Source: a virus
Taxonomy: Duplodnaviria > Caudoviricetes
Reading direction: 5' to 3' (one strand)
DNA: 60,510 bases
IMG/VR virus record: IMGVR_UViG_3300034012_000174
Coordinates: 1-60,510 of that record
This document shows, piece after piece, positions 22,047-54,228 of the stretch. The number at the start of each line of letters is the position of its first letter. Position 1 is the first letter of the stretch. The notes beneath the pieces are model-generated. The model saw only the letters and a program-made list of their open reading frames with translations, was not told where the DNA came from and made no database searches. Position numbers and translations under genes: made by a program.

Positions 22047-22948
22047 TGGAATTACAGATAAGCACTTTGTGGATTGAGCGGCTTTTAAAGAAGCCCTTCC
22101 ATAAGTATTGTCTGTTGGGGGACAAAAAGTTTTTTGACCCCTATTCCTTCCCACTAGCAAAAGAGTTGGAAGATAATTTCTCTGCCATTCAAGCCGAACT
22201 TAAAGAGATTCTTAAGCGTTACGACGACTTTGCTCCGTTTCAAAGCATCTCACCCGATCAGACCTACATCTCCAACGATGACAAGTGGCGAATGTTCTTT
22301 TTTAAGGCTGCTGGAGTAAACTTTGGACGTAACCAACAGTTTGCACCAAAGACGTTTGAGATTTTGAACAGGCACAAGTATGTAATTTCAGCCTACATAT
22401 CTGTGCTTGGTCCTCATAAGATGCTTATGCCACATGAAGGTCCGTGGTCTGGCATTTTGCGTATGCACTTAGGGGTAGTAATTCCCGGCAACAAAGAGTG
22501 CACGCTGGTCAACGGTGGCGAGAAGTACCACTGGGAGGAAGGCAAGGTAGTCCTGTTTGACGATACATATGAGCATATTGCCGTCAATGAGACCGATCAG
22601 ATTCGGGCTATCCTGTTTTTGGATGTGATGCGTCCTCTTCCGCAACCGTGGAAGTTTATTAACTGGGCGATCCTGCGCCTGTCGGTGTTGTTTCCATATA
22701 TCTGGATTCCATACTTCCGACACAAGCGGTGGGAGAAGCAGTTCTACGGAGAAGACGAATGCAATGCACAATGGTCCCTAGCGAGCACGTTAAAGAAATT
22801 TGGAGCCAAGTTGAAGGCTACCTTGAAGGGGCTGCTGAATACACTCATGGTCGGTATGACGTGGATGACATCTACGATTCAATCATGGGCTACGACCATA
22901 CGCTCTGGATTGCTTTCACGGAAGAAGGCATCAAAGGGGCAGTTGTGA
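22043..22948 (+). CDS. Aspartyl/asparaginyl beta-hydroxylase family (LpxO-like) Fe(II)/2OG dioxygenase
   Basis: PHEGP..GILRMHLGV..P, W.EG..VLFDDTYEH.A.N, R.ILFLD..RP. Confidence 0.8.
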   Translation: MMELQISTLWIERLLKKPFHKYCLLGDKKFFDPYSFPLAKELEDNFSAIQAELKEILKRYDDFAPFQSISPDQTYISNDDKWRMFFFKAAGVNFGRNQQFAPKTFEILNRHKYVISAYISVLGPHKMLMPHEGPWSGILRMHLGVVIPGNKECTLVNGGEKYHWEEGKVVLFDDTYEHIAVNETDQIRAILFLDVMRPLPQPWKFINWAILRLSVLFPYIWIPYFRHKRWEKQFYGEDECNAQWSLASTLKKFGAKLKATLKGLLNTLMVGMTWMTSTIQSWATTIRSGLLSRKKASKGQL

Positions 22949-29000: not shown

Positions 29001-32000
29001 TAAAACTGACCCGCTAGAGGATGCGCTTTTTGATTTGGGGGCGTTTACTGATCTCAAGGAGTTTGTTGCCTACGGTCTGACCCAGCCCGAGATGCAAGAC
29101 TTCCTGATGAAGGTGCCCGGTCAATACAAGTTTGATGGCGACACCCTTAACCGTGGACTGCTCACTAAGTTTGTGCAGTCTATTCGCAAGATGTTTAGCA
29201 TGGGGCCGCAGTATGACTCTGCGTTCCAAGACCTTGTGGTGGTAACGGATCGTCTGCTACGTGCAGCCCCTGCCCCTTCTTCTCAGAGCACTATCATGGC
29301 TCTGGCAAAGAAAATTACCGCAAAGCAAAACAAGACTCTTGGCAAACTGGCAAAGTCGCAAAGTGCAACGGATTTGAACGCTAGTGTGGGCGAGTTAATG
29401 ATGCAAACCCGTAACGCCAAAGATGCGGTGCGGCTGCTTAAGTCTGCATATAGTGCTTTGTCTGTGGGTACTATACGTAAAATTTTGCCCACGCAAACTA
29501 CGATGGACATCACACGCTGGGTGGGTGATCGCATCAACAACCTCAAAGTCATCAACGACGCAGTGCAAGACATGGCTGGCATGCGTGCCAAGATGATTCG
29601 GGAACTGGCGCAGAAAGTCCCTGAGTGGGTGGCGTTTGGTCAGAAGTACGAAGACGGTGCTCGGGCGCTAGGCGATGTCATGCACGCATCTACGTTGCTA
29701 GGTGTTGACCCAACAGCGCACTCAGACCTTACCGATGCGTTGAAGAACGACACTCAATTGCAGCAGTTAAAAGCCGACTACCAAGCCGCACTTACTGACC
29801 CTAACAAGTCACCCAAACAACGAGCCACTGCCAAAGGCAACGTCACCAAACGTGAGAACGAGTTGAAGGTGGTGTACGAAGGTGGCTTGGTGGTGAACCC
29901 TCATACCGGGGAGAAGTACAACATTAGTGGTTGGGAGAGCCTTGCCAAGCCCATATTCGGTAACGGTGAAGGGCAGCGCATCTACGTCATGGCGCGTGAT
30001 GCCTACCGGGATACGTTTGACCTGCATCAAAAGTTGCTGATCGAGAAGATCACTAAGGCCAACATTCCGGGCAAAGCCAACCAACCCAATACCCCCAAGG
30101 GCAAACTGATTGCCCAGATTACGCAGACTTTCCAAGAAGCCCAACAGTTAGGGGTGTACTTCCCCCTCATGCGTTACGGCAACTACTGGTTGCGTATCGG
30201 TAAAGGCAAGTCGGGTGAGTTCTATATGTTCGAAACCGCAACGGCTCGTAACAACTATGCCCGTAAGCGTGCGGAAGAATCTGGCAAAACGCTCGATGAC
30301 ATGATCGAGAACCAAGATTACGATGTGGGTGATGACCTGCGCGAGATGCGTAACGACATCGTTGAGTCCAGTCAAATGCTCAAGGACATCTTCAAGGCAC
30401 TGGAAGACAGCGCCAAGATGGACCCCACTACCGGTAAGGCTGGCATTTCGGATGTAGACGCGATCAAAGATCAGGTCTACCAGATGTACCTGATGACGCT
30501 GCCTGATCGGGACATCCGCCGTAAGTTTACCCACCGCCAAGGTAAGACTGGTTTCAGTGCCGACGTGCTTCGTAACTTCATTGTGTCCCAGCACACTGCG
30601 GCTAACCAACTGGCACGCCTTGCCTACTCCGACAAGATTCGTCTGGGTATTGGTTCCGCTTATGCTGAACTTGCAGGCAACCCTGACAAGTTGAAACTCG
30701 GTGCGTTCGTGGATGAGATTGCTACGCGAGCCAGTGCAGAGATGACCCCCGCAGTTCCGGGCGAGTTTAACTGGGACCAAATGGCAAGCCTTGGTAACCA
30801 AGTGGTGTTTTACTACATGCTGACTTCGCCTAAGTCGGCCTTGGTGCAAATGACGCAGTTGCCGATTGTTGGCTTACCAGTCCTGACCGCCGAGTATGGT
30901 GCAACCGAGACGGCAAAAGTTACCGCTCGTTACTCCAACCTGTTTAACAAACTTGGCACTACTAAGGTAGACAAGAACGGCAACGTGACCACTAAGTGGG
31001 GCGAGCCTTCGATCAACGATTCCAACTACGTTAATAAGCATCCAGACCCTGAGTACCGCAAGGCACTCAAGCGTGCATGGGAAGCCGCCCAAGACCGAGA
31101 CATCTTCATGTCTACCTACGCTGCCGACATGACAAGCCGTGCCGCTGTGCCCACTGGCAAGTACGAAGGCTGGATGAAGAAGGGCACTCGGGCTACGTTG
31201 AACTTGATGGGCGGTGCCTTCCACCACTTGGAGCGCATCACACGTGAAATTATGTACATGTCCACGTTTGAACTGGAATTTGCTCGTGCTAAGAAAGAAG
31301 GGCTAAACAACTCAGACGCTACGGACCGTGCGATCAATGCTGCAACCAACATAGTGTACGAGGCGCTGTTTAACTACACCCAGTACAACAAACCGCGCAT
31401 CATGAAGGCTGGTGCTATTCCTCGTTTGGCTACCCAGTTCATGACTTACCCGCTTCAGATGACTTCATATCTGGTGCGCAACTTCTATGGAATGCTCCCC
31501 TACTTAAACAAAGAAGACAAACGTGATGCTGCCATCAAGTTCTTTGGTACGATGGGTATGACTGGCCTGTTTGCGGGTGTGGTCGGCCTGCCCGGGTACA
31601 GCATGATTATGGGTATGGCAGAGGGAATTCGAGAAGCACTTCGCCCTGACATGGAAGATGATGATTCCGATGAAGAGTACGACGAGGACGATGAAGGCGA
31701 CCCGCTGGGCAAACGCAGTCTCGACTTGTGGTTCCGTGAGTGGTTCATTCCAACTTACTTTGGTCGGGGTAGTGACCTTGCTAAGGCAATGGGTCTGACC
31801 GAAGAACAGGCTCTGGCTCTGCAACGTGGCGTTAAGATGGGGCCGATCTCTGCACTGACTGACCTGAACATTGGTGCATCGGTGTCGCTGGATGGTCTGT
31901 GGTTCCGTGACGATGTACCTGCGGAAGACTCCAAGGCTGCATTTACGCAGTTCATTTTTAACTTTGTGACTGGCCCATTCGGTAGCATGGGGCAACAGAT

Positions 32001-32544
32001 TGCCTCTGCTTTCGATGACTTCAACAACGGTCAATTTAACCGTGGGGTTGAAAAAATGCTTCCTGCGTTCTTCCGTGGTGGGGCAAAGGCCCTCCGGCTA
32101 TCGGAAGAGGGGGAAAAAAATCGCCAAGGAGATAAAATCCGTAGTGCCGAGTGGTACACCACGGGCAAATTGTTGGGCACGGCACTGGGTTTCCAAAGCA
32201 CTGAAGTAGCCGAGATTCAGAAAAAGAACTTCATTGCCAAACGCATGGAGATGGATATCGACAAAGACCGTAAAAAAGTGTTGGATGATCTTGATCTTGC
32301 AGTGCAGCGGTATGAAGACAATCCGACGGACCGCAACGAGACTCGTCTTGAAGACTCTCTAGTAGCCATTGACCGTTTTAACTACAAGAACGGAATGAAG
32401 GCTATCAGTGGTGAGACCGTGTCGAAGTCGTTGTCTGGTCGGGCACAGCGCCGTATGGAAGCAGTTGAAGGACTTAGCGTCAGCCCTCAATTTGCGCCAT
32501 ATATTTATCCACTGCTCGAACGCTCTCAAGTGCCGCAGGAATAA
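26077..32544 (+). CDS. Very large internal virion (polyvalent-type ejection) protein with a zincin-like HExxH
   Basis: 2155 aa; last gene of the late arm; G.Y...TIYL...TFLHEALHGAT...EFVAYG; Gly-rich hydrophobic segments near the C-terminus. Confidence 0.75.
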   Translation: MENPFAKYREQEEPNPFRKFAQEEPVAAPAPKKEEAVPVAAPAAAPAPKPAEVNPFAQYAPGAPAVAPQEEGSFWGEIKKGFGSAWEQIKYLPDALKLQASSEAIDMNKQLLNAYAQIDAGKEFSPAEASQLRMDYAMLRNYQKANPTKRAEIKGGGETFVKERSKQIIDAIPAYAEYQKRLEPYKGRVPDATDITSLKDFRDWLGFNVASGAVQLVPVMAAAYTTGGAGAFTVGTGLAMQEGIQNRLNFVLDKVKSLSPEEQATAVQEYLRATGDTTMAVALASGALDLAGPVGTILRKQLSKEVGKEAVKFETKRQAAKAAAKEAPREIGEEFLTGGAQEIAQIAGERNVGEQTGDIFSKENVKRVFNAAAAEAAGSLSGSGINVTTAVGKQALQERAERLAQEELTNQVREMERRTRQADVSAAADKIGPTFDALVAKYQAEGMSETDAFKAAGADIAQGRVDLGDIGTDTGRGEPSVSVPSGGAEVVESAAEPSETGTAPVAVPSAPVGDAGAGTQPVATALEGRVEPSLDVEALAALPVEPGPTLDVDALMAQEPRQLGRTEPSLEPMAAAEPGSLEEQVRQAYEPSIADQIIARANEITQEAADLGASVNPELALRAAEAQVTEVLDEAALTETAAPTETVETAAPTETVETEAETETAAPAETVALDAVTEDTPASALPVNPETGLKPKGKRGRKPVERTPEEQTAAEAQRKERQKVGRDSIRTAEKARAVIEKPFNVDDYDSMDAARAAAIELQQERDNALVEAYRILNDRNISPTSKAKQVAKRIIDHPSVDFQEKQRAQVRAKQPDTARADFLQGSTNAQPDTFYETVTDATKAIDHVIKTGNAFEKLLAQRIKPFLKGVNVVIVSDPETDIPDARTRRNFRGAMGLYVEKGKQRTIYLSNKPGLRGINNMTFLHEALHGATMAQINAWTKDPNSVSPQARAAVADLQKVMLQAYKYYAVMNVSGKTDPLEDALFDLGAFTDLKEFVAYGLTQPEMQDFLMKVPGQYKFDGDTLNRGLLTKFVQSIRKMFSMGPQYDSAFQDLVVVTDRLLRAAPAPSSQSTIMALAKKITAKQNKTLGKLAKSQSATDLNASVGELMMQTRNAKDAVRLLKSAYSALSVGTIRKILPTQTTMDITRWVGDRINNLKVINDAVQDMAGMRAKMIRELAQKVPEWVAFGQKYEDGARALGDVMHASTLLGVDPTAHSDLTDALKNDTQLQQLKADYQAALTDPNKSPKQRATAKGNVTKRENELKVVYEGGLVVNPHTGEKYNISGWESLAKPIFGNGEGQRIYVMARDAYRDTFDLHQKLLIEKITKANIPGKANQPNTPKGKLIAQITQTFQEAQQLGVYFPLMRYGNYWLRIGKGKSGEFYMFETATARNNYARKRAEESGKTLDDMIENQDYDVGDDLREMRNDIVESSQMLKDIFKALEDSAKMDPTTGKAGISDVDAIKDQVYQMYLMTLPDRDIRRKFTHRQGKTGFSADVLRNFIVSQHTAANQLARLAYSDKIRLGIGSAYAELAGNPDKLKLGAFVDEIATRASAEMTPAVPGEFNWDQMASLGNQVVFYYMLTSPKSALVQMTQLPIVGLPVLTAEYGATETAKVTARYSNLFNKLGTTKVDKNGNVTTKWGEPSINDSNYVNKHPDPEYRKALKRAWEAAQDRDIFMSTYAADMTSRAAVPTGKYEGWMKKGTRATLNLMGGAFHHLERITREIMYMSTFELEFARAKKEGLNNSDATDRAINAATNIVYEALFNYTQYNKPRIMKAGAIPRLATQFMTYPLQMTSYLVRNFYGMLPYLNKEDKRDAAIKFFGTMGMTGLFAGVVGLPGYSMIMGMAEGIREALRPDMEDDDSDEEYDEDDEGDPLGKRSLDLWFREWFIPTYFGRGSDLAKAMGLTEEQALALQRGVKMGPISALTDLNIGASVSLDGLWFRDDVPAEDSKAAFTQFIFNFVTGPFGSMGQQIASAFDDFNNGQFNRGVEKMLPAFFRGGAKALRLSEEGEKNRQGDKIRSAEWYTTGKLLGTALGFQSTEVAEIQKKNFIAKRMEMDIDKDRKKVLDDLDLAVQRYEDNPTDRNETRLEDSLVAIDRFNYKNGMKAISGETVSKSLSGRAQRRMEAVEGLSVSPQFAPYIYPLLERSQVPQE
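27991..28051 (+). repeat. In-frame 27-bp tandem repeat (ETAAPTETV x2)
   Basis: gaaactgccgcacctacggagactgtg at 27991 and 28018. Confidence 0.85.
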
Positions 32545-44888: not shown

Positions 44889-44916
44889 ATCATATCACAG
44901 TTTTGGACTTTGTCAA
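44889..44916 (-). promoter_or_regulatory. Sigma70-type (middle) promoter for the replication operon
   Basis: TTGACA-16 nt-TATGAT with TG extension, about 10 nt from the ATG at 44879. Confidence 0.7.
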
Positions 44917-44925
44917 ACACTGGGC

Positions 44926-44953
44926 AATAAAAAACCCGCCACGAGGGCGGGTT
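44926..44953 (-). terminator. Terminator ending the early operon
   Basis: On the - strand: aacccgcc-ctcgt-ggcgggtt followed by tttta. Confidence 0.75.
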
Positions 44954-44987
44954 GGAAACTACCTAACAATGTTAGGTTGTGACTACG

Positions 44988-45131
44988 TTAGCAGGTGATT
45001 GGTCTGAACGGGCCATCTTTATCTGTATCCCAACAGCAGATACCTCCGCGCCCGTCAGGGATGCACTTGGTTGCGGCTATCGCGCCACTGCTCATCAACG
45101 TCACACACAGAATCGCTATTACTTTTTTCAT
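44988..45131 (-). CDS. Small secreted Cys-rich peptide (47 aa, absent from ORF track)
   Basis: AAGGAG RBS; MKKVIAILCVTLMSSGAIA-ATKCIPDGRGGICCWDTDKDGPFRPITC*. Confidence 0.65.
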   Translation of the reverse strand: MKKVIAILCVTLMSSGAIAATKCIPDGRGGICCWDTDKDGPFRPITC

Positions 45132-45300
45132 GGTTATGCTCCTTTGCATAGTTGGTTAGTACTTCCCTCATCTTCCCCGTGTAACTGGGGAATCCTTTAT
45201 AGAACTCCAATACGTCATGAGACAGTCGGAGATTCACGTGTACCTTGGCAAGGTGTTTACCCTTACCTCGTACCTTTTTGGTGGTAGGCGCATCACTCAT
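45055..45300 (-). CDS. BrnA-antitoxin-like ribbon-helix-helix DNA-binding protein
   Basis: RGKGK...KVHVNLRLSHDVLEFYK...YTGKMREVL. Confidence 0.65.
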   Translation of the reverse strand: MSDAPTTKKVRGKGKHLAKVHVNLRLSHDVLEFYKGFPSYTGKMREVLTNYAKEHNHEKSNSDSVCDVDEQWRDSRNQVHP

Positions 45301-46177
45301 CGCTCACCTCCTTGACCACAAAGAATGCTTGGTCGTGAATCTTGAGACCCGCACTCTTGATGAAATACTTTGGCTCGACCAGTTTAAGCATACCTACGCT
45401 TCGCTTGATATGGGGTGGCAATGTTTCGGTTGAGAAGATGCGTATATTGTGCTCGCCCGTATCGTCGTTGCCCATAACAGCATAGTCGCTTCCATGAATT
45501 AGTACCACAGCCCCCGTATTGTTTTGCTGACATTGATGAATCTCCCTCGTGATCTTGAACTCTTCATGGGCATTCACTAACTTGCCCACCGTGTCTGCGT
45601 TTGCACCATCCTGTACTGCGATAGGCGCAAGGCTTTCGTAGTTAGCCATGATGTACGGCATCAAGTGTTTGGCGATGTGGTCGTACGTCCGTTGGAACGT
45701 ATTCGCTCGGTCTTGAAACACTCGGTAGATTTCATTAGCCGCATCGTTGTTCGCCTCAGCCAGTCGCTCGTTGATGGTCTTGGCTCCGAACATCTTGCCC
45801 ACAATCTTGACCGCCTTGTTCAAGTCCTTGGTCTTGGTTGTGTCACCACGTTGCCGACTGGTGCTAATACGCTCGTTGTTAATGGCGTAGACTTTCTCTC
45901 GGCTACGTCCGTAGTCCGTACTGATCTGACCCAGTGCTTCGCGCCCGTCATACACATAGAATCGGTATGCTTCAGCATAGGGTTCAGCATTGTCGGGACG
46001 CTGATGCCAAAACTGGGTAGACACGAACCGCCATTGCGGATACTTCTTGGCAAGGGCTTCCACGAATGGCTTGATGTCTTTCTCCACGCGAATCTCGCGG
46101 CGCTCCTTGTCTTTCTCCCATCTGCCTACGATGTTAGGCAGAGTGAGTTCGATGTAGTCGTATTTCAAATCTTCCAT
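45293..46177 (-). CDS. Hypothetical early protein
   Basis: AAGGAG RBS before ATG 46177; C-terminal LP..I...VGMLKL. Confidence 0.7.
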   Translation of the reverse strand: MEDLKYDYIELTLPNIVGRWEKDKERREIRVEKDIKPFVEALAKKYPQWRFVSTQFWHQRPDNAEPYAEAYRFYVYDGREALGQISTDYGRSREKVYAINNERISTSRQRGDTTKTKDLNKAVKIVGKMFGAKTINERLAEANNDAANEIYRVFQDRANTFQRTYDHIAKHLMPYIMANYESLAPIAVQDGANADTVGKLVNAHEEFKITREIHQCQQNNTGAVVLIHGSDYAVMGNDDTGEHNIRIFSTETLPPHIKRSVGMLKLVEPKYFIKSAGLKIHDQAFFVVKEVSDE

Positions 46178-46187
46178 GATCGGCTCC

Positions 46188-47045
46188 TTACCATTCATAC
46201 TGCTTGAGGATTGCATCAAGTTTGTCCTTCATGCCCTTGCGCACTTCGGGACTCTCTTTGATTGCGTCGATGTCAGCCCCTAACATTGTTAGTTCGAGGT
46301 CACGTCGGGCTTGCTCCAACTTCGCATCCTTCGTTACGTTGAGGTGCGTCAGCAAAGAGCACAGGCTCTGCGCATTTGTGATGAGGGTATCGTGGTATCG
46401 CTTCTTGGACTCGTCCTCGCCATCCACGTCCGTCAACTTCTCGCTCATGCCCGTGAGCAACTTGTGCAGTCTGTCCCACGGCTCACGCATGGCTTCAGCC
46501 AGTCGATCATTGAAATTCATTTCGTACTGCTGGCGTAGATCATCCAAGTCCTGCTCTGCTACTTGCAAGCGGAAATCACCGGACTCAGGCACAGGGCTAA
46601 ACACAAGTCGGAAGCCGAACTTGCTTCGCACCTCGTCCACGCTCGGGTAGTCCTCATGGTTGAACAGAGTGCCCAAGTAATTGTTGGCAGTCTGCACCAG
46701 TGCGGGGTACTGCTGAATGAAGGTGTCCACCATCTTGTTGAAGGTGTCCCTGCGCACGTTAGCCTCGGACTTGTAGTCCATGAACAGGCTTGTGGATAAC
46801 AGCCTAGCCCCTTTGTCTGCCCACGGCAGGGTACGGGTGTTGTGCCACAGGCGGCATCCTGCGGCGTAGTCCGCGATGTCCTTGCGGAGTGTGGTTCCCG
46901 CCATCAGGTTCTTGCGAACTTGTGCGGCGTTTTGCACGGCGGCGTTGTCACTCACCACCTTCTCTGTTGCACTCTTGTCGAGTTTGTTTGCAGTCCATAC
47001 CGAGATGTTCATCTCAACAAGTACTGCGCTAGATGTAATACTCAT
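46188..47045 (-). CDS. DUF3150-like helical protein associated with the AAA/vWA pair
   Basis: AVLVEMNISVWT..K.D...TLPW...G.RLL...YP...E...KF. Confidence 0.6.
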   Translation of the reverse strand: MSITSSAVLVEMNISVWTANKLDKSATEKVVSDNAAVQNAAQVRKNLMAGTTLRKDIADYAAGCRLWHNTRTLPWADKGARLLSTSLFMDYKSEANVRRDTFNKMVDTFIQQYPALVQTANNYLGTLFNHEDYPSVDEVRSKFGFRLVFSPVPESGDFRLQVAEQDLDDLRQQYEMNFNDRLAEAMREPWDRLHKLLTGMSEKLTDVDGEDESKKRYHDTLITNAQSLCSLLTHLNVTKDAKLEQARRDLELTMLGADIDAIKESPEVRKGMKDKLDAILKQYEW

Positions 47046-47079
47046 GGGTCGCTCCTTTGCTTTCAGTTATCTAACAATG

Positions 47080-47265
47080 TTAGGGGTTGTTTTTCTTCAT
47101 CTTGATCTCCATGCCATCCTCGGTGGCACGGATAGTCGCCTCGCCATGCGCGACTTGGAACAGCAGGCGCATCGTCATCACGTGAATGCGATGAAGATTG
47201 AGGAAGCGCCAGATCACAAACAGGTTTAGCGTTACGCTGATAGCCAGTAACTCACTCATACTCAA
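47080..47265 (-). CDS. Small membrane protein
   Basis: N-terminal hydrophobic helix; stop codon lies within a palindrome copy. Confidence 0.55.
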   Translation of the reverse strand: MSMSELLAISVTLNLFVIWRFLNLHRIHVMTMRLLFQVAHGEATIRATEDGMEIKMKKNNP

Positions 47266-47510
47266 CTCACTTTCTCAGGTTTACCTGCCATCTTTGCCAT
47301 GTGGTAGAACGCCATCGGCACTACTTTCAACTCACGCAGTCCGTCATTGGTGTCCTGCGGGTAGACGTGGTAGGTCGTCCCGCCCTCCTCCGACTTGCGC
47401 CACTTCTCTTCGTACAACTCAGCGTCGGCCAGCAACTCTAAAAGTGCTAGGGCTTTTGAAGTATCCAGTACGAAATTGCTATACCCCACGCGAATGATTG
47501 CTTTCTTCAT
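47262..47510 (-). CDS. Hypothetical protein
   Basis: MKKAIIRVGY...YHMAKMAGKP. Confidence 0.65.
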   Translation of the reverse strand: MKKAIIRVGYSNFVLDTSKALALLELLADAELYEEKWRKSEEGGTTYHVYPQDTNDGLRELKVVPMAFYHMAKMAGKPEKVS

Positions 47511-47514
47511 GAGA

Positions 47515-48741
47515 TTAGTCCTTAATATGAACAGTCTTACCGCATGGGGCATAGACATCCGATGCTCCATTGCAAATCGTCCAAAGAATCGGAGCATTCC
47601 AGTCATCACCCCAGTCTCCTATGTAGCCATCAGTGAGCATCACGATGCACTCGGGCGTGACGTTCTTATCCTTCAGGTAGGTCATCATTGCGGTAGGGTC
47701 AGTGCCCCCACCCCCTCTTGGTTTGGTAGAACTAACAATGTTAGGTACTGACAACTCGTCGTACTCTTCATGTGCCGCTACCACGCTATCCCAATAGATC
47801 AAGTCAACAGACTGCGGATTGACATCCTCAGCGATGGACTTCACCTCCGACAGGAAGCGGTTCAACTCCGACCCACCGATGGAACCCGATGTGTCGATGC
47901 CGATGGCGATGCGCCCCACACGTTCACCTATTAGCGTAGGCATGTAGACATCACTCGACAGATAGCGCCGATTTACTCTGCGCCATGAACTCGCATCCTT
48001 GGCGTTGCAGATGGACTTGACGAACTCGCGCAGGATTTCGCGCCAATCAATTTGTGGTTCGAGCAGGTCACCCAACTCTCGCCCCATGTCACCCGCACCT
48101 TTGCCGTGAATCTTTTGGTGCGCAATCTGACCTTGGCGCAGGGCTTGATCGACCTCACGCTCCAACTGCTTGCGCTCGGCTTCGTCCAACTCCTTGGCTC
48201 CGTCCCAGTCGTGCGAGTCGAATCCACCGTGTCCACCACTTTCACCATCACCTTCACCGCCTGCGCCGCCCTTACCCTCTTGCTCCTGCTTGAGAATGTC
48301 GAACACTTGCTTGGCGTTCATGTTGGCGAACTTGGCATCCAGTAGCCCGTAGACTTTTCCGTTCTTGCGAGGGATTGCCACAGTGGCTTCGTTCGGATCG
48401 GACTTTACGATCATCAGGTTAATGACGTAGTCACAAGCGGCGTTAGCCAACTGCGGGTTCTCGTCATACAACTTGCGCCACACGAACAGATGACGGAACG
48501 CTTTGTGCAGGTTCTCGTGTAGCACCACGAACCCCAACTCCTTGTCGTCCAGTCCTTCGATGAACGTGCGCCCGTAGATTTCATCCCGTCCGTTGGTGCA
48601 TGCCGTGGGGACTGCATCACTGACCTCGGTCTTGCCTAGCATCAGGATGCCCGACCACAGTGCGAACTTGGGGTTGCGCATCAGGGCGATCTTTACTTTC
48701 TTCAGCCGTCGCTCGGCTTTGTCTTGTACCTGCTCTAACAT
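47515..48741 (-). CDS. DUF2201-type metallopeptidase (HExxH) plus vWA domain protein
   Basis: PTACTNG, VVLHENLHK..RH, NAACDYVIN; IDTSGSI MIDAS, GGGTD, LTDG; AGGAG RBS before ATG 48741. Confidence 0.85.
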   Translation of the reverse strand: MLEQVQDKAERRLKKVKIALMRNPKFALWSGILMLGKTEVSDAVPTACTNGRDEIYGRTFIEGLDDKELGFVVLHENLHKAFRHLFVWRKLYDENPQLANAACDYVINLMIVKSDPNEATVAIPRKNGKVYGLLDAKFANMNAKQVFDILKQEQEGKGGAGGEGDGESGGHGGFDSHDWDGAKELDEAERKQLEREVDQALRQGQIAHQKIHGKGAGDMGRELGDLLEPQIDWREILREFVKSICNAKDASSWRRVNRRYLSSDVYMPTLIGERVGRIAIGIDTSGSIGGSELNRFLSEVKSIAEDVNPQSVDLIYWDSVVAAHEEYDELSVPNIVSSTKPRGGGGTDPTAMMTYLKDKNVTPECIVMLTDGYIGDWGDDWNAPILWTICNGASDVYAPCGKTVHIKD

Positions 48742-48758
48742 TGTTAGGCTCCTTTCGA

Positions 48759-49826
48759 TCACAGCAAATCTTCGTTCTTCGCCACCCAGTCGGCGAACGC
48801 AGTCGAACTGAATGCCACCGCTTGCTTGGTCGGGGACTTCGCCACGTTGATGGCAAAGCATGCTTGCCACTCAGGCTCGAACCGTTCGAGGTACTGCATG
48901 AATGGGGTGATGGAGTCCTTGGCGATCTTTGCGATGGCTCCGAACACAAGCACAGCACATGCACCTGCGCTAGTAGGTACGTCCGCACTCTTGGGGTTCT
49001 TGATGATGGCTTCCCAAGTCGGCAACTGATCTTGGTACTCCACGAACGCTTGCATGTCACGGGCGGCGGCTTCGCCAACTGCCCCCGTCATTGCGGCAAT
49101 CAGCGTATCGGTATCAATCTGTTCACGCACCCTAACAATGTTAGAGGCTCGTTCGAGAGAGCGAGGCGAGACAAAGGCAGTCTGCACCTTCTTCGGGTTG
49201 TAGATGTAGGGGTTGTCGCCGTGCGCGGCATCGGTGTAGGAAGCCAAGGCATGCGGGAACTGACGCACCCACGCCATGATGACTGGCTCTACGTCGTTAT
49301 TCACAGCCCACTCAAGCCACTCGTCGGAGTCAGGCTTGCGCACGTTGAGCGGGATGATGCGGTTTCGGCTATGCGCCTTCAGGTTATCACCCACGCCATC
49401 GGATGACAGGTTGCCCGTCAGGAACACGATGGAGTCGGGGTGCACCGAGATGTCACCCAGTCGAGGGTTTGCCACTTCGAGCAGAGGGTGAAGCATGTTC
49501 TTGATTGGCTCCGCACCTTTGGTGAACTCATCTAACATTGTTATGACGGGCTTGCCGGTGTGGACTTTGAACCTGCTGTTAGGGTAGTAGGTGGTAGTCT
49601 TGGTCTCGTGGTTGATGACAGGCATAGCGATGTCACCCAAGTCCATGTTGGGCACGTCGATGTATGCCACCTCGTGCTCGGGCAGGCTTGCGGATAACGT
49701 CTTAAGCAGAGAGGATTTGCCGATTCCCGGCTCGCCTTGTAAAAGGTAGCGGTTCTGCGGGGTTGCGAGAATGATGCTCGCGGCTTGCTTCAGGGACACT
49801 TGTGTGCCGAATGTGATTGCGCTCAT
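48759..49826 (-). CDS. MoxR-like AAA+ ATPase
   Basis: GEPGIGKS Walker A, MLDEF Walker B, TGN sensor, SPRS. Confidence 0.85.
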   Translation of the reverse strand: MSAITFGTQVSLKQAASIILATPQNRYLLQGEPGIGKSSLLKTLSASLPEHEVAYIDVPNMDLGDIAMPVINHETKTTTYYPNSRFKVHTGKPVITMLDEFTKGAEPIKNMLHPLLEVANPRLGDISVHPDSIVFLTGNLSSDGVGDNLKAHSRNRIIPLNVRKPDSDEWLEWAVNNDVEPVIMAWVRQFPHALASYTDAAHGDNPYIYNPKKVQTAFVSPRSLERASNIVRVREQIDTDTLIAAMTGAVGEAAARDMQAFVEYQDQLPTWEAIIKNPKSADVPTSAGACAVLVFGAIAKIAKDSITPFMQYLERFEPEWQACFAINVAKSPTKQAVAFSSTAFADWVAKNEDLL

Positions 49827-49929
49827 TGGTCTTTCCTTCTTGGTTAGTTACACTTACTTCATTACACCTAACATTGTTAGGCAGGCTCACGGTGGCTCAT
49901 CTGAACTCAGACTCCCACTCTTTTTTAAC

Positions 49930-49958
49930 ATTGTACCACATAAAGATGTTCAAGTCAA
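49930..49958 (-). promoter_or_regulatory. Early sigma70 promoter
   Basis: TTGACT-17 nt-TACAAT; near duplicate of 52411-52439. Confidence 0.75.
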
Positions 49959-49976
49959 GGGCTTCGGTCATCGGTT

Positions 49977-50876
49977 TTAATTTCCGCGACCAAAGAACTT
50001 GGCGTACGGGTCACGCACCACCTCACCGCCTTGGGCTTCGACTTCCACGAAACACTCGTCCCGATGGGCGAGCAGGATGTACTCGTCGAGATACTTGAGC
50101 ATGTCCTGCGCCGTAGGTCTCCACCGATCTTGCCGCATGCCGTACTTTGACGCGCTTCGCGCAAGCCACAGTGACGCCTTGTACTGATCGGCGGCTTCCC
50201 CCGACTTGGCTAGGTCTAGGAACGCAAGGATGTCGCTCGCCTTCATGTTGTGCGCTGTCGTGACTTGCAGTTGGGCGGGGTAGTTGGGCAGTCCGTCTCG
50301 CACCCATCCGAACACGTCACCGAACTCCTGACCGCTGAAGCCATCATCCCGTAGGCGCATGGTTCGCATCACGTAGTCCTTGAAGGGCTTGTATGCTTTC
50401 CTAACATTGTTAGCCCCTGCTCGGTTGATCTTGTGCGTCTTGATCTGCATGGGGTTCTGAAACTCCAAGTCCCCGTGCTGATTGCGCCGGAACGTATTTA
50501 CCCCGTGGGTGTGCAGTGCGTACATGCCGACCTGCGTGCACCCTTCTCGGGTTGCACCTATCCACGCATGGTTATGCTGAATGCACCCGCGTACGTTGAG
50601 CACCTCTTCGATGAAGGCGATGGTTGACTGGCTTGCCCACCCGTCCAAGAGGATGTCGATGCGCCCGTCTTTGTGGTACGTCACCACGTCCGTGTTGTAG
50701 AGGCGGCATGCGATGGACTCGTCTGCGTCCTTGCGGATAGTCACGTGGGTGTTGCGCCGCTTGCCCAGTGGCTTGCACTCGGGGTTGCGCCCACGGATGA
50801 GTTGTGTGTCGCGCTCCTTGAGGGTCGCATCCATCCAGTTGTAGAGGGTTGGTAATTCGTATCTGGCTCCGTACAT
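49977..50876 (-). CDS. Hypothetical early protein
   Basis: AAGGAG RBS; IRGR...PLG.R...LYNTDVVTY..DG. Confidence 0.75.
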   Translation of the reverse strand: MYGARYELPTLYNWMDATLKERDTQLIRGRNPECKPLGKRRNTHVTIRKDADESIACRLYNTDVVTYHKDGRIDILLDGWASQSTIAFIEEVLNVRGCIQHNHAWIGATREGCTQVGMYALHTHGVNTFRRNQHGDLEFQNPMQIKTHKINRAGANNVRKAYKPFKDYVMRTMRLRDDGFSGQEFGDVFGWVRDGLPNYPAQLQVTTAHNMKASDILAFLDLAKSGEAADQYKASLWLARSASKYGMRQDRWRPTAQDMLKYLDEYILLAHRDECFVEVEAQGGEVVRDPYAKFFGRGN

Positions 50877-50877
50877 A

Positions 50878-51045
50878 TCACTGCTCCTTCTCGTCTATGT
50901 CTAACATTGTTAGGGGTTGCTGCTCCGCCTTGGCTTTGTGTCGCCCTGCGTTGCGCTTGGGATTTTTTAACAATGCCGCCACCACAGGGTTGCGCGGCTT
51001 CTTGGTCAGCACGGGCTTGTGCTTGCTCGGTTTGTTCTTGTGCAT
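50878..51045 (-). CDS. Small basic protein (55 aa, absent from ORF track)
   Basis: GAGG RBS; MHKNKPSKHKPVLTKKPRNPVVAALLKNPKRNAGRHK... Confidence 0.55.
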   Translation of the reverse strand: MHKNKPSKHKPVLTKKPRNPVVAALLKNPKRNAGRHKAKAEQQPLTMLDIDEKEQ

Positions 51046-51052
51046 GTCTACC

Positions 51053-51127
51053 TCACACGTTCAGGTAGATCAGCATGGCGATCACCGCAAGGACTGCACC
51101 CCACACCATAATTAAGTATCCCCACAT
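51053..51127 (-). CDS. Membrane microprotein (24 aa)
   Basis: MWGYLIMVWGAVLAVIAMLIYLNV*; fills the gap between flanking genes. Confidence 0.5.
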   Translation of the reverse strand: MWGYLIMVWGAVLAVIAMLIYLNV

Positions 51128-51129
51128 GC

Positions 51130-51351
51130 TTATCCCTTTCCGTACCACAGTGTTGTGTACACTTTGCGCTCGTCCATCGACACGATGACGATACAGTCGG
51201 GTCGGATGTCGTAGACGTAGTGCGGTTTGTTGCGTAGGTGTACCACATCACCTACTTGCACATCCTTCTCGCGCAAAGACTTAACGAATGCCACCGTGGT
51301 CGTGCTCATGGCGTAGCCATTGTGGGTTTGGGTTGTCGGAGTTATTTTCAT
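51130..51351 (-). CDS. Small SH3/KOW-like beta protein
   Basis: VQVGDVVHLRNKPHYV. Confidence 0.55.
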   Translation of the reverse strand: MKITPTTQTHNGYAMSTTTVAFVKSLREKDVQVGDVVHLRNKPHYVYDIRPDCIVIVSMDERKVYTTLWYGKG

Positions 51352-51431
51352 TTCAGCCACACCTCCACAAGCCACACTAGGAACATCAGCCCAAGCACAG
51401 TGCCGCCGATGATTGCGAATGTCTCTTTCAT
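51348..51431 (-). CDS. Membrane microprotein (27 aa)
   Basis: MKETFAIIGGTVLGLMFLVWLVEVWLK*; ATGA-coupled at both ends. Confidence 0.55.
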   Translation of the reverse strand: MKETFAIIGGTVLGLMFLVWLVEVWLK

Positions 51432-51562
51432 TCGGTCTCTCCTTCTTGCACTTCCGCTCGGACGGTGCGTATACCCTCGAACACTTCGACCACCTCGAAC
51501 GCCACCCCGTTGTCGTCGAGGATTTCGTACAGGCGGTCAGCCGTCATTGGTTTTTCGCTCAT
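51428..51562 (-). CDS. Small acidic protein (44 aa)
   Basis: MSEKPMTADRLYEILDDNGVAFEVVEVFEG...; AGGAG RBS. Confidence 0.55.
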   Translation of the reverse strand: MSEKPMTADRLYEILDDNGVAFEVVEVFEGIRTVRAEVQEGETE

Positions 51563-51741
51563 TTGAACCACTCCTTCACAGGTTTACCGATGAACATGCA
51601 CTCGTGGGCATGGCGTTCGCCCTTCGCGTCGATGTAGGTCTCCCCGCATCCCGCCATCCACTCCAACAGCATCACGGCGAGAAAAGCGGAGAAGGCCAGC
51701 GTGCCTAACATTGTTAGGATTACTTCAGTAGGTCTTTTCAT
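51559..51741 (-). CDS. Small membrane protein
   Basis: TM helix followed by EWMAGCGETYIDA.G..H..EC. Confidence 0.6.
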   Translation of the reverse strand: MKRPTEVILTMLGTLAFSAFLAVMLLEWMAGCGETYIDAKGERHAHECMFIGKPVKEWFK

Positions 51742-51745
51742 TTGG

Positions 51746-51910
51746 TTACTCCTCAATTAAGTCCATTGGGTCACAGGTAAAAAACGGATACTGAGGGCGA
51801 ATCTCGCACATCTCATACAGCCTGCTTGCTTCTTTCGTCGCCTGCTCGGGGCTATCCGCTTCCACTTCCACGTAGTCTGAGGTTGTCATCAGCACATTCC
51901 ACTTAGGCAT
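51746..51910 (-). CDS. Small hypothetical protein
   Basis: VEVEADSPEQA motif. Confidence 0.6.
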   Translation of the reverse strand: MPKWNVLMTTSDYVEVEADSPEQATKEASRLYEMCEIRPQYPFFTCDPMDLIEE

Positions 51911-52109
51911 TTTCTCTCCCCCCGACAAGTTCAAGGTATTTGGGGTTGACCATCAACTCCAACTGGTAGCCCAGTCGCTCGATGTCCTCAAGCACGGGAC
52001 GGGTCAGCGTCTTAGTCCCCGCTATCCGCGCAAGTAGTTTTGCCTTCTCACATACGGGGTAGACCTTGGTCTCCCCGTAGACTTCTTTCATCTCGATCTG
52101 AATCTTCAT
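51903..52109 (-). CDS. Small conserved phage protein
   Basis: KEVYG...YPVC..A.L.A.IAGTKTL. Confidence 0.65.
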   Translation of the reverse strand: MKIQIEMKEVYGETKVYPVCEKAKLLARIAGTKTLTRPVLEDIERLGYQLELMVNPKYLELVGGRENA

Positions 52110-52321
52110 GCTCGTTGCTCCTTCGGGTTGGTGTTGAATAAGTCCTTGGGGTCATAGACCAGTTGGTATGCACCCTTGGAGTAGGGGATAGCCACAGTCC
52201 ATCGCTTCTGTTTTGCCAGTGCATCACCGCAGAACTTGCAGTGGTGGTAGCCGAGATTCCATCGTTCGACGTGCACATCGTCACCGCAAGATATGCACTC
52301 ACGCCAGTCATAGTCACTCAT
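52106..52321 (-). CDS. Zn-finger protein (two CxxC)
   Basis: CISCG...R..LGY..C..CGD...KGAY...NPK. Confidence 0.7.
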   Translation of the reverse strand: MSDYDWRECISCGDDVHVERWNLGYHHCKFCGDALAKQKRWTVAIPYSKGAYQLVYDPKDLFNTNPKEQRA

Positions 52322-52410
52322 CGGTTCGCTCCTTCTGTCATGTACCTAACATTGTTAGGCGGGTTGTCCGTGTTACCACGGGGTTTGGTTAAACTTTCAC
52401 TTTTTCTTAT

Positions 52411-52439
52411 ATTGTACCACAATAAAGTATCCAAGTCAA
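52411..52439 (-). promoter_or_regulatory. Early sigma70 promoter
   Basis: TTGACT-17 nt-TACAAT. Confidence 0.75.
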
Positions 52440-52459
52440 GTACTTTGATCGCGGGGTGC

Positions 52460-53050
52460 GACTAGAGGATGTTAGGAAGTAAGCAGAGGACGACGAAACC
52501 TAACAATTCGCTAACATTGAAGAAGCCAGTGTTGATGCGGGTTTGCGGGGCTTTTGTTATAATGTTATAATGTTATGAGAGAAAAAGAGAGAGGGGGGGT
52601 TTTTTGTTTTTGCACTGGTGCGTGGAACTGCACTTGCGGAGAGCCTCGTTTTTCCGTTCATTCTCCAAAATCACGCTAACATTATAACATTTGACGAAAG
52701 TTGTTTTAAATCAACGACTTACGCAATGTTCACTTCTAACATTACGCTCTAACAAAACCAACAAACCTAACATTGTTAGCCCCATGTCCATCCACCTCTC
52801 TGGTCACTATCATGGTCGCCTTGGTGATACGCGAGAAATCCTAACTTTACCCCGACCATCTCGTCCCACCGCTCTGGTCACTATCATTGTCCCTAAACCA
52901 AAAGACGCTAGGGGAAACACAAAAGCCCGCACCCCCTAACATTGTTAGGTCGAGCAGGCTAGGTGTACGGGAAACAAAAAGCCCGCACGGCGTGAAAACC
53001 GGACGGGCAAAAGAAAACCCCCGCGAGGGCGGGGGCTAGGTTAGGGGGGT
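52460..53050. other. Non-coding repeat-rich control region, candidate replication origin
   Basis: 15-bp inverted repeat (52561-75/52677-91), many TAACA half-sites, 22-bp and ~20-bp direct repeats, stacked hairpins. Confidence 0.45.
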
Positions 53051-53051
53051 T

Positions 53052-53126
53052 TCAGTACGGGTAAGAGGCGATGACCGCCAACACCAAAGTGAAAAGATAA
53101 AGCCACAAAATACTGATTCGGCGCAT
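53052..53126 (-). CDS. Membrane microprotein (24 aa)
   Basis: GGAG RBS; MRRISILWLYLFTLVLAVIASYPY*. Confidence 0.45.
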   Translation of the reverse strand: MRRISILWLYLFTLVLAVIASYPY

Positions 53127-53182
53127 AGTGATTCTCCGGTAAGCCTAACAATGTTAGGCGGGGGTTTCCCCCCGCCCTCCTC

Positions 53183-53692
53183 TTACTTCACCATGCTCAG
53201 GTCAACACCCAAGGCCATCAGCGCGGAGGCGATGAATTTTTGCGCCTCGGTTACTTTCGCAGGGAGTGATTCCTGCTTCGCGTTGAATTTGTAGAGGGCA
53301 ATCAATTCCTCCACGTTGCGGGTCACTGCATCGCGGGGGGTGTTACCTGCGCCCTCGCTCTCACCCGCGCCCTCGGCGGTCTCACCCTCGGCGGGTTTGC
53401 CGTGACGCTCTTCGCGCCCATACTTGCGAATCCGCGCCCATACTGTAGAAGGGTTAGAGTGTTTCGCCGCCTTCAATTCCACATACAGGGCTTTCTTTTC
53501 GCCGTGCACAGGCTTGGCGGTCTCGCTCGAATCGTTCGCTTCGATGTCGAACCAATCGAACCCCACGAACAGAGCATTCAGGGCAATCGCATAATCGCGC
53601 TCGGCACCGTAAGCCCGTACTACTGCATCCGCAACACCCTTGCGGAGGGTTTCAAGTGATACCGTGTTACCGTTGACAATGACGTTTTCCAT
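53183..53692 (-). CDS. First gene of the early arm, hypothetical
   Basis: AAAGGA RBS; HSNPSTVWARIRKYG; flanked by palindrome copies. Confidence 0.75.
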   Translation of the reverse strand: MENVIVNGNTVSLETLRKGVADAVVRAYGAERDYAIALNALFVGFDWFDIEANDSSETAKPVHGEKKALYVELKAAKHSNPSTVWARIRKYGREERHGKPAEGETAEGAGESEGAGNTPRDAVTRNVEELIALYKFNAKQESLPAKVTEAQKFIASALMALGVDLSMVK

Positions 53693-53767
53693 TTTGAATT
53701 TCCTTTATCTAACATTGTTAGGGAACCGCCTAACCGGATGCAATTCGTTTTCGTTTTGCATGGTGCC

Positions 53768-53800
53768 ATTATATCAAAACGTGGTACAGAAAAGCCACTA
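53768..53800 (-). promoter_or_regulatory. Candidate early promoter (extended -10)
   Basis: TGaTATAAT on the - strand (-10 at 53768-53773); lies between palindromes at 53708 and 53823. Confidence 0.5.
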
Positions 53801-54228
53801 TTTTGGAAACAACAATTCACCCCCTAACATTGTTAGGCTAGGCGCGACCCCACTACCCCGCCACCCCCCAAACCACAAAACGAGGAGGTGTGGTCCCCCT
53901 ATACTTACTAATCCACACATTGGATCGCAGCCCCCGACGTTTCCCCATCTAACTTCGTACCACATTCTTATCCCCACGCCTTAACTCGGCTAATCTCCGT
54001 ATGCGTCTCGCCGCCACTCCGGTAAAGATGTTTCCCGTGGAACTAAGGTGTATCTGGATATTCACGTAGGGGTACCCCCTTCACTTTGTCCGCCAAGACG
54101 TACCTAGTTCGATCCTAGAAACACCCCCCTTCATTTTTCTTTACCTCCCCTACCCCCGGGGGGTATTATTTTTTAAGGTAAAAATTTTTACCTTGCTTTC
54201 AGCAGCACGCCCGTCTCCTTCCGGGCTT

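Follow-up and report, generated by a model that had tools for sequence, protein, structure and literature searches.

Seventeen copies of a palindrome confined to one arm of a tailed-phage genome: selection on the DNA and a candidate array of operators

What is the function of a short palindrome that is repeated 17 times in one segment of a phage genome, inside genes as well as between them? The question is raised by IMG/VR virus record IMGVR_UViG_3300034012_000174 (Duplodnaviria; Caudoviricetes), whose 60,510 bp were analyzed in full (the window hereafter) and in which the repeated element is the 15-bp palindrome CCTAACAWTGTTAGG. A first-pass annotation, made from the letters of the sequence, had proposed that the copies mark out a domain and that they are selected as DNA rather than for the proteins they cross. 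Both proposals are borne out below. We suggest, with moderate confidence, that the 17 copies are operators at which a dimeric regulator turns off or damps early transcription. The array, its confinement, the selection on the DNA, the half-site behaviour and the geometry around promoters are shown by the analysis, whereas the binding of a protein, the repression and the identity of the binder are inferred.

Allowing up to two mismatches, CCTAACAWTGTTAGG matches the window 17 times, and all matches fall within 44962-53837, that is, in 8.9 kb out of 60.5 kb. Seven copies are perfect, nine have one mismatch and one (49531) has two, in agreement with the first-pass annotation, and no copy lies elsewhere. 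Chance would give 0.05 copies (maximum 1 in 100 dinucleotide shuffles), and a control pattern read backwards has no match in the 60,510 bp. The mismatches are almost wholly confined to the outermost bases of the 15-mer; the 13-mer CTAACAWTGTTAG is exact in 16 of the copies and has a single mismatch in the 17th. The ends of the record share a 127-bp repeat and the window is the whole virus record, so that the lack of copies elsewhere is valid for the entire genome. The copies are on average about 550 bp apart, and seven of them are fully intragenic. The peptides that had been read across copies (LTML, PNIV/SNIV, NNVR and ITML) are correct. The copy at 48734 does contain the start codon of the vWA gene, and the copy at 47070 the stop codon of open reading frame (ORF) 47080-47265. 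The series also ends just before a terminator, as had been noted: a terminator-like hairpin (44953-44933, minus strand) directly follows the copy at 44962.

The motif-bearing arm is a single minus-strand unit that runs from about 53.85 kb to this terminator at about 44.93 kb. It starts in a divergent intergenic region, beyond which the plus strand carries the genes for the small and the large terminase from 54.2 kb. In the direction of transcription it encodes a 169-aa protein, has about 860 bp without long ORFs, and continues with small ORFs including a zinc-ribbon protein, a 299-aa protein, an AAA_5 ATPase, a DUF2201 metallopeptidase/vWA protein, a 285-aa protein, a 308-aa protein and a BrnA-like ribbon-helix-helix (RHH) protein. 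Judged from the layout, the sigma-70-type promoters and the gene content, the arm is probably the early region. Coordinates are collected in Table 1.

The array is a property of a phage family and not of one genome. At least 119 IMG/VR stretches contain the exact 15-mer, a single locus holding as many as 24 core copies in 12 kb, and the motif-bearing loci are syntenic relatives whose ATPase is 57-99%, vWA protein 52-95% and terminase 56-97% identical. In a sample chosen independently of the motif, namely the best 80 of 444 relatives found with an ATPase profile, at least one core copy is present in 71 and at least five in 62, and most of the remaining relatives have a symmetric variant of the motif instead. 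The confinement to one domain is also seen in relatives: five records with a completeness of at least 95% (60-67 kb) have 79 copies of the 11-bp core between them, which occupy one segment of 9-12.6 kb in each record, with one clear outlier. In nine mapped loci no copy was found in the terminase, portal or polymerase genes; three of the nine (L051, L081 and L118) have one copy in the gene for a resolvase-like nuclease beside the polymerase. Neither form of the 13-mer appears in the papers searched, nor is the motif or the phage family described there, subscription journals not being covered.

Selection on the nucleotides is evident from two tests, both of which agree with the original proposal. 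In 1000 synonymous shuffles of 15 ORFs of the arm, in which the peptides and the codon usage of each gene were kept fixed, the mean number of intragenic copies was 0.44 and the maximum 3, compared with 7 observed, and none of the 1000 attained 7. The enrichment is therefore found over codon-preserving as well as over dinucleotide shuffles. In the other test, orthologous sites were scored as kept when the core had at most one mismatch, and the expectation was derived from the homologues' own peptides and the codon usage of the family. The first ATPase site (copy 12) is kept in 62 of 79 homologues (1.7 expected), the second (copy 11, in the same degenerate form) in 38 of 79 (0.15 expected), the vWA site (copy 14) in 59 of 86 (3.3 expected), the site in the 285-aa protein (copy 16) in 62 of 79 (3.2 expected) and that in the 299-aa protein (copy 9) in 37 of 57 (1.7 expected). 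All five intragenic sites are thus conserved, in 37-62 homologues where 0.15-3.3 were expected; the homologues are not phylogenetically independent, but synonymous sites elsewhere are near saturation. At the ATPase site the codons TCT, ATT and GTT are used by 80-88% of the homologues, whereas columns of conserved residues average 59%. In the 299-aa protein the site is retained although most of the family is only 22-33% identical, and the peptide alternates between ANNVR and ANIVR (Asn or Ile) with the central A or T while the motif is unchanged. These comparisons support the view that selection acts on the DNA and not on the protein, and that it would override the choice of codons and even of amino acids.

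The palindrome acts like duplex DNA composed of two half-sites that vary independently, and not like a hairpin. Its centre, read on the sense strand, is A in 438 sites and T in 308 (58.7% A, indistinguishable from the A/(A+T) background of 55.9% in the arm), and G or C in 19; two-base spacers are AA in 26, TT in 25 and AT in 14. The mirror positions 2 and 14 deviate independently of each other (668/65/63/5, Fisher p = 0.82; 801 non-redundant sites from 101 loci of the window type), and the deviations themselves mirror each other, C to A in 56 sites and G to T in 52. C..G makes up the outermost pair of 271 of 713 sites, as many as independent preferences at the two ends would give. As a hairpin, the 15-mer would have an energy of -2.7 kcal/mol in DNA and -4.4 in RNA, and the conserved degenerate copy in the ATPase gene (49531) does not fold. 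Beyond the 15 bp the flanks have an information content of about 0, and the motif has no match in Rfam. It is the unbiased centre, the uncompensated deviations of the half-sites, the weak hairpin and the presence of orphan half-sites in the arm that argue for a duplex site made of two half-sites.

The copies also have a regular relation to promoters. Around 653 non-redundant sites, -10-like hexamers on the sense strand concentrate 50-80 nt upstream of the centre of the site, where seven 5-nt bins contain 172 of them; the other 5-nt bins contain about 5-7 each. The -35-like hexamers peak at about -90 from the centre, and a smaller pile of -10-like hexamers is found at +55 to +75. In the window, three promoter-like sites have a copy at about +42 to +59, and the first promoter has, in addition, a copy at about -66. 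This first promoter was recognised by eye and is not listed by the consensus promoter scan. When five relatives are aligned over it, the islands that stay conserved while the DNA around them has diverged are a copy, TTGnnT, TGnTAYAAT, an inverted repeat in the leader (where L125 has a compensated change), a second copy, and the Shine-Dalgarno sequence with the ATG; the second copy overlaps the Shine-Dalgarno sequence in three relatives. By this alignment, two copies 115 bp apart enclose the first promoter, one at about -66 and the other at about +49. All these promoters are predictions backed by conservation. Few neighbouring copies are less than about 80-100 bp apart, and among the short spacings those of 110-150 bp are the most frequent. 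The sites are also frequent near starts of genes, 35% of 735 lying at -8 to +60 nt from a likely start codon, compared with 18% of random positions in the same arms.

How an array of this kind might work can be outlined from its geometry. Each operator would consist of two inverted (C)TAACA half-sites around a central A or T, read by a sequence-specific protein with two-fold symmetry. Host sigma-70 RNA polymerase would start transcription of the arm from several promoters. A protein bound to the copies about 60 bp on either side of a promoter could loop over the promoter, other copies would place it in 5' leaders beside ribosome-binding sites, and at intragenic copies it could act as a roadblock. 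The net effect would be a timed turn-down of early transcription across the whole arm once the binder has accumulated. Silencing by roadblocks, in the manner of the mycobacteriophage stoperators, had been among the roles proposed in the first-pass annotation and is the best fit among them, but it fits in part: the motif is palindromic and free of orientation, and many copies bracket promoters. For the other roles named there, parS-like loading, handles on first-injected DNA and decoys, the analysis brought up no evidence in either direction.

Which protein reads the sites can be approached through natural variants of the motif. Relatives have the symmetric forms ATAACAWTGTTAT, GTAACAWTGTTAC, GTTACAWTGTAAC and CTAACA-WW-TGTTAG, in which both half-sites are altered together (ATAACA..TGTTAT, GTAACA..TGTTAC or GTTACA..TGTAAC) or the spacer is 2 bp, and the array evolves in concert. 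L188 is closely related to L187 and L167, with identities of 87-93% in the ATPase, 79-89% in the vWA protein, 92-96% in the 285-aa protein and 92-94% in the polymerase, yet has a different version of the motif from theirs at corresponding places. Such close relatives with different motifs imply that the determinant of specificity is either a variable early protein or a host factor. In the same phages the palindrome is longer, about 24 bp in L187 and L167 (TCNGA-CTAACAWWTGTTAG-TCNGA) and 19 bp in L188 (GTT-GTTACAWTGTAAC-AAC), and nearly every copy of the three is 20-35 nt before a ribosome-binding site. We lean towards a binder encoded by the phage; the prospect of a host protein falls a little short of even.

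Four phage proteins had been named as candidates for the binder, and three of them, the RHH protein (45055), a helix-turn-helix protein (35689) and a winged-helix protein (40422), are unsupported. The DNA-reading beta-strand of the RHH protein varies widely among phages with an identical motif, and in L188 this strand resembles that of the window in spite of the different motif. The other two belong to the replication arm; relatives of the winged-helix protein are present in only 2 of 76 loci, and those of the helix-turn-helix protein in 10 of 119, though few loci extend that far. The zinc-ribbon protein was rejected also, since L188 and L187 differ in their motifs and yet share 84% identity in this protein. 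The fourth candidate, the product of the first early gene (53183-53692), is the best of those named, although the evidence for it is weak, and its family is tentatively considered the leading candidate. The gene is the first of the arm, is often duplicated and lies among the densest copies. The most conserved helix of the family starts with NPS in 74 of 96 ORFs. L188, the sole phage with a changed core (TTACA), has AAR at this position in both paralogues, and L154, with GTAACA, has NGR. The monomer is modelled confidently, with a predicted local distance difference test (pLDDT) value of 86. The model of the homodimer scores 0.68 and the best of three controls 0.00; of proteins with solved structures, 20 of 30 homodimers and 1 of 23 single-chain proteins attained that mark, counts that hold only roughly because a custom alignment was used. 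Repeated runs of the homodimer agree in at least 79% of contacts, with a pLDDT of at least 78 for the partner. A profile search gave 625 homologues at E ≤0.001 among 8000 scored candidates. None of the 120 homologues listed has a Pfam domain, and they are unnamed or called 'hypothetical protein' with the exception of one 'RuvA-type DNA-binding subunit'.

A bolder version of this proposal, which we regard as doubtful, is that the 53183 family of these uncultured lake phages represents a new all-helical dimeric DNA-binding fold that reads an 'operator code' on the first-entering 15% of the genome, conserved enzyme genes included, the protein and some 20 sites co-evolving. In such co-evolution, for instance, a replacement of A by T in TAACA would go with Ala in place of Asn, and a replacement of the flanking C by G with Arg in place of Ser. 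If it were true, virulent phages would possess a self-timed early shut-off by looping and roadblocks, a class of control known mainly from temperate phages and plasmids.

Several observations weigh against the operator array as we picture it. Among the proteins with a recognised DNA-binding fold, none is at once conserved across the family and tied to the motif. The model of the 53183 protein matches no known DNA-binding fold: Foldseek gave no match at E ≤0.001 to either PDB or BFVD, and the best Z in a wide VIA-align search was 7.0, to helical bundles, which is in the range commonly seen and does not make the fold new. NKY replaces NPS in L135, L136 and L148, all of which have the standard motif, so that the proposed connection of the helix with the motif depends on two lineages and has exceptions. 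Moreover, the 53183 family and other variable early proteins diverge strongly (28-96% identity) while the motif stays identical, which fits a conserved host factor better. The geometry is not free of difficulty either. Spacers of 1 bp and 2 bp are mixed between identical half-sites in L138, L140, L141 and L144, which is awkward for a rigid dimer, and the palindromes of 19 or 24 bp in some relatives are awkward for the duplex reading. Helical phasing of 10-11 bp looked strong before related pairs were collapsed and is weak once they are (R about 0.2, nominal p about 0.02, with five periods tried), and a site at -66 could be equally compatible with activation. Finally, L174, L195 and perhaps L172, among the 80 relatives, have no array in the stretch fetched.

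These difficulties give room to other explanations. The copies might be sites of a host global regulator or nucleoid-associated protein that gates the first genes or handles the incoming DNA, the variants then reflecting different hosts. We find this unlikely, although phages whose small early proteins share only 25-50% identity have one and the same motif, and the abrupt switch between L188 and L187/L167 is what a host jump would give. That a host protein can bind palindromes in a phage genome has a precedent in SrpA and phage K5 (PMC5945682). Cellular DNA can be enriched for the word, as a metagenome-assembled genome (MAG) of Dinoroseobacter with 21 exact 13-mers demonstrates, but those copies are embedded in longer palindromes where convergent genes end (at the 3' side) and resemble repetitive extragenic palindromic (REP) elements, and the enrichment is plausibly a coincidence given the 596 billion bases scanned. 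Nor is the switch in L188 decisive, since its first early genes differ too and a phage-encoded switch explains the change equally. The copies could also serve for loading or anchoring, in the manner of parS, KorB operators or matS, with a clamp or bridging protein that spreads over or condenses the first-entering 15% of the genome for silencing, protection or handling. A 13-bp palindrome in many copies, near to and far from promoters and within genes but in one domain, is the architecture of KorB and matS sites as well, and the mean spacing of about 550 bp would let such a protein cover the whole arm. This is nevertheless quite improbable: the regular distance of about 60 bp from promoters points to local action, and no ParB-family, CTPase or MatP-like protein was found by PHROGs and Pfam in about 60 ORFs of the window, a scan that included part of the small ORFs and could have missed remote homologues.

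A role of the palindrome as a hairpin, either in single-stranded DNA as in the promoters of the phage N4 virion RNA polymerase or in RNA (a translational operator, a processing site or a nut-like element), has several points in its favour. The genome layout and the ATPase/vWA pair resemble those of N4-like phages, a copy would give a stem of 5-6 bp with a loop of 3 nt, many copies are just upstream of or overlap a ribosome-binding site or start codon in the excess given above, and the changes between phages preserve pairing, with relatives extending the palindrome to 19-24 bp. Against this stand the lack of strand preference at the centre, the mirror positions that are uncompensated within genomes, the weak stems and the ATPase copy that cannot fold, to which can be added that no -10-like element is found at a fixed short distance downstream and that no RNA polymerase gene was detected in the large ORFs scanned. 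A hairpin is on balance very unlikely for the array as a whole; the minority of copies adjacent to Shine-Dalgarno sequences and ATGs may have a side role in RNA. That a selfish or neutral repeat (a miniature mobile palindrome, for instance, or a homing target) has spread in one arm and lacks any regulatory role can hardly be entertained. Short palindromic repeats do spread in genomes, and the same word is repeated in one bacterial MAG. However, the flanks carry no information and hence betray no larger element, copies occupy orthologous places in proteins of no more than 25-30% identity, reading frames accommodate copies without disruption, and close relatives have changed their copies in concert.

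Table 1. Palindrome copies and other features of the motif-bearing arm, listed in the direction of transcription
Feature	Coordinates	Strand	Context
Copy 1, perfect	53823..53837		Intergenic; centre about 66 bp upstream of the putative start of the first early promoter; core invariant in 5 aligned relatives
First early promoter (putative)	53771..53800	-	Extended -10 TGATATAAT at 53779-53771, preceded at about 17 bp by a weak -35
5' leader inverted repeat			ATGCAA..TTGCAT, downstream of the first early promoter
Copy 2, one mismatch	53708..53722		Leader of gene 53183-53692, 15 nt before ATG; about +42..+56 from the putative start
First early gene, 169 aa	53183..53692	-	Candidate binder
Copy 3, perfect	53144..53158		Intergenic, 18 nt before a hydrophobic ORF of 24 codons
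Copy 4, perfect	52935..52949		Intergenic, flanked by two copies of a gtgcgggctttt-type repeat
Copy 5, one mismatch	52766..52780		Intergenic
Six orphan half-sites (CTAACAW / WTGTTAG)	52469..52755		Non-coding cluster
Promoter-like site	52710-52681		-10 overlapped by, or embedded in, two orphan half-sites
Promoter-like TTGACT-17-TACAAT	52411..52439	-	Copy 6 at about +45..+59 (consensus scan)
Copy 6, perfect	52345..52359		Leader of zinc-ribbon gene 52106-52321, 24 nt before ATG
Copy 7, perfect	51704..51718		Inside ORF 51559-51756, reads LTML
Copy 8, one mismatch	50900..50914		3' end of ORF 50878-51045 (LTML), 24 nt before ATG of 49977-50876
Copy 9, one mismatch	50400..50414		Inside the 299-aa gene, reads NNVR
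Promoter-like TTGACT-17-TACAAT	49930..49958	-	Copy 10 at about +42..+56 (consensus scan)
Copy 10, perfect	49867..49881		Leader of AAA ATPase gene 48759-49826
Copy 11, two mismatches	49531..49545		Inside the ATPase gene, reads ITML, just before LDE of the Walker B region
Copy 12, one mismatch	49131..49145		Inside the ATPase gene, reads SNIVR
Copy 13, one mismatch	48734..48748		Contains ATG (48741-48739) of metallopeptidase/vWA gene 47515-48741
Copy 14, one mismatch	47731..47745		Inside the vWA gene, reads PNIVS
Copy 15, one mismatch	47070..47084		Overlaps stop of ORF 47080-47265; 25 nt before ATG of 46188-47045
Copy 16, one mismatch	46279..46293		Inside the 285-aa gene, reads LTML
Copy 17, perfect, last	44962..44976		Directly before the terminator
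Intrinsic-terminator-like hairpin and T run	44933..44953	-	End of the motif-bearing unit
Strong promoter-like TTGACA-16-TATGAT, 11/12 matches	44889..44916	-	Next unit; motif-free downstream

The arm has several features apart from the array. The stretch 52321-53183 (about 860 bp) has no ORF of at least 50 codons on the sense (minus) strand and contains four full copies of the motif. It also holds the hydrophobic ORF of 24 codons (start at 53127), a terminator-like hairpin (53037-53016), two copies of the 16-bp direct repeat atgatagtgaccagag and a tandem repeat of ATAACATT. A small RNA may start at the promoter-like site 52710-52681; the stretch has no match in Rfam. Upstream of copy 1, at about 53915-53945 on the minus strand, a block ATCCAATGTG..GATTAGTAAGTA.AGGGGG followed by a G-rich run is kept in five relatives, and this block, rather than the arbitrary ends of the record, may mark a physical genome end or a packaging signal. 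Two early proteins are hypervariable, that of 308 aa (45293-46219, minus strand) and that of 299 aa (49977-50876, minus strand): they are 22-33% identical in most relatives, where their neighbours are 55-75% identical or, in close pairs such as L188/L187, 90%. The pattern is one that might be expected from an arms race with the host. The unit downstream of the terminator, which begins at the promoter in the last row of Table 1, encodes the resolvase-like nuclease and DNA polymerase A.

The affinities of the phage differ between its parts. For the vWA protein the best tblastn matches among cultured phages are about 30% identical and come from N4-like phages. The terminase is nearest (53-57% identity) to those of DSL-LC04, 023Pt_psg01, the pelagiphages HTVC027P and HTVC023P, and a Planktothrix/Synechococcus phage group, and these cultured phages have the structural module in common with the phage of the window. 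Two of them were inspected and have neither the ATPase/vWA arm nor the motif nor any other repeated 11-mer, and megablast of the arm against phage records gave no match. No integrase or immunity repressor was found among the ORFs scanned, no search having been aimed at gp71, and Pfam and PHROGs gave no repressor-like match in the arm, with no comparison made to the sequence of the phiC31 c repressor.

Outside the arm, a 2155-aa virion protein (26077-32544, plus strand) has a long N-terminal part rich in Ala, Glu and Pro, an HExxH motif and an LPD39 domain, and resembles giant 'DarB-like' proteins and internal virion proteins (PDB 9sfn_G). Its match to the PHROG 'virion RNA polymerase' is limited to residues 805-1081 against positions 1995-2263 of the profile, a segment outside the polymerase. 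Pfam finds no RNA polymerase domain in it or in the other large ORFs scanned, and a chain of an internal virion protein is its sole match in a PDB sequence search with E up to 1. A role as RNA polymerase was therefore rejected, and by its domains and the PDB match the protein is a polyvalent internal virion protein. The structural module further encodes a class I methyltransferase fused to an MptE-like domain (8998-10425, plus strand) and an Asp/Asn beta-hydroxylase-like protein (22043-22948, plus strand).

The phages are found in lakes. In lake-water DNA runs from many studies, 64-100% of the sampled words of the arm are present. A 677-nt contig from a freshwater metatranscriptome (run X24) aligns over 53067-53695 with 32 differences, and hence comes from a related strain; it spans the first early gene and extends upstream past a copy of the motif, which gives the product of this gene some further support as the binder, in a library that may contain DNA. 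When 40-58 kb was compared with one RNA library, contigs were found only at 43.6-53.8 kb, with none on the terminase/portal side or at 40-43.6 kb, where absence of cover is uninformative; here too the source could be DNA.

In genome contigs totalling the 596 billion bases mentioned above, the 15-mer gives scattered single matches across all phyla, as chance predicts, and no host could be called. Two MAGs are exceptions. The Dinoroseobacter MAG (G001, 3.8 Mb; L227, L257 and L264) has its 21 exact copies of CTAACAWTGTTAG where about 0.1 are expected. These REP-like copies are often paired 81-113 bp apart, in the longer palindromes at gene 3' ends, and one of them is located between the gene of an Lrp-type regulator and a convergent P450 gene. 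In a gammaproteobacterial MAG (L234; G002 contig 17, 43.5-48.6 kb), three copies within 5 kb have common extended flanks that include a further GTTGTTAG and are situated between small genes that look to be of the toxin-antitoxin type; the half-sites fit the core-site consensus of integrons (RYYYAAC / GTTRRRY).

The array is of interest beyond its likely role. It indicates that a non-coding signal can override the choice of codons, and even of amino acids, at fixed places in conserved phage enzymes, in a family widespread in lake water. It offers a testable system, one 13-bp word in about 20 copies with natural variants, for the switch-off of early genes and for the joint change of specificity of a protein and its sites. 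In metagenomes, the motif could serve as a marker of the early arm, and probably of the entering end, of these genomes. Should the binder prove to come from the host, the motif would help to identify that host.

The array can finally be compared with systems that use repeated sites or symmetric sites. The stoperators of cluster A mycobacteriophages (L5 gp71, Bxb1, D29) are asymmetric and oriented with respect to transcription; they occur in both arms, mainly between genes, and the immunity repressor of a temperate phage binds them. In both cases dozens of 13-bp sites are found in one genome, some of them away from promoters, and stoperators stop elongating polymerase, as the present copies may; however, the motif of the window is palindromic and free of orientation, is limited to one arm and is fully intragenic in 7 of 17 copies. 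In D29, stoperators are described as operator-like elements that are dispersed over the genome (PMC12266134). A closer likeness in symmetry is offered by phiC31, in whose early region there are, as here, many highly conserved inverted repeats near early promoters (predicted ones in our case). The conserved inverted repeats (CIRs) of this temperate actinophage are 17 bp long, intergenic and bound by the c repressor, whereas the repeat of the window is 13-15 bp and has conserved intragenic copies.

Sites scattered both near to and far from promoters are known also from plasmids and chromosomes. The matS sites bound by MatP are limited to the Ter domain of Escherichia coli, and KorB and KorA of RK2 use short palindromes for silencing across the element. 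The array is like both in its scattered short palindromes, which in one case serve element-wide silencing and in the other make up a domain-limited set. The difference is that a ParB-type CTPase clamp or MatP is indispensable there, whereas the ORFs scanned here gave neither, and that the array is found in the arm of a virulent-looking phage. KorB loads at its operator, slides for up to 1.5 kb and silences promoters, and its operators are from 4-10 bp to more than 1,000 bp away from their targets (PMC11790492).

At the first promoter the arrangement resembles that of gal, where GalR forms a loop between OE at -60.5 and OI at +53.5: two identical palindromes (53823 and 53708), about 115 bp apart, surround a sigma-70 promoter with TGATATAAT. 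Unlike the gal operators, the pair belongs to an array of 17-24 copies that continues into coding sequence, the looping is a proposal, and the helical phasing is weak. The virion RNA polymerase of N4 uses hairpin promoters, to which the palindrome is similar in its short stem and 3-nt loop, and its location, in a podophage of N4-like gene layout, within the region that enters first; it is different in that no virion RNA polymerase was detected and that it has neither strand specificity nor a pairing constraint. In its proposed way of working the array comes nearest to the stoperators, the CIRs of phiC31, the KorB/KorA operators of RK2 and operator pairs around a promoter such as that of gal.

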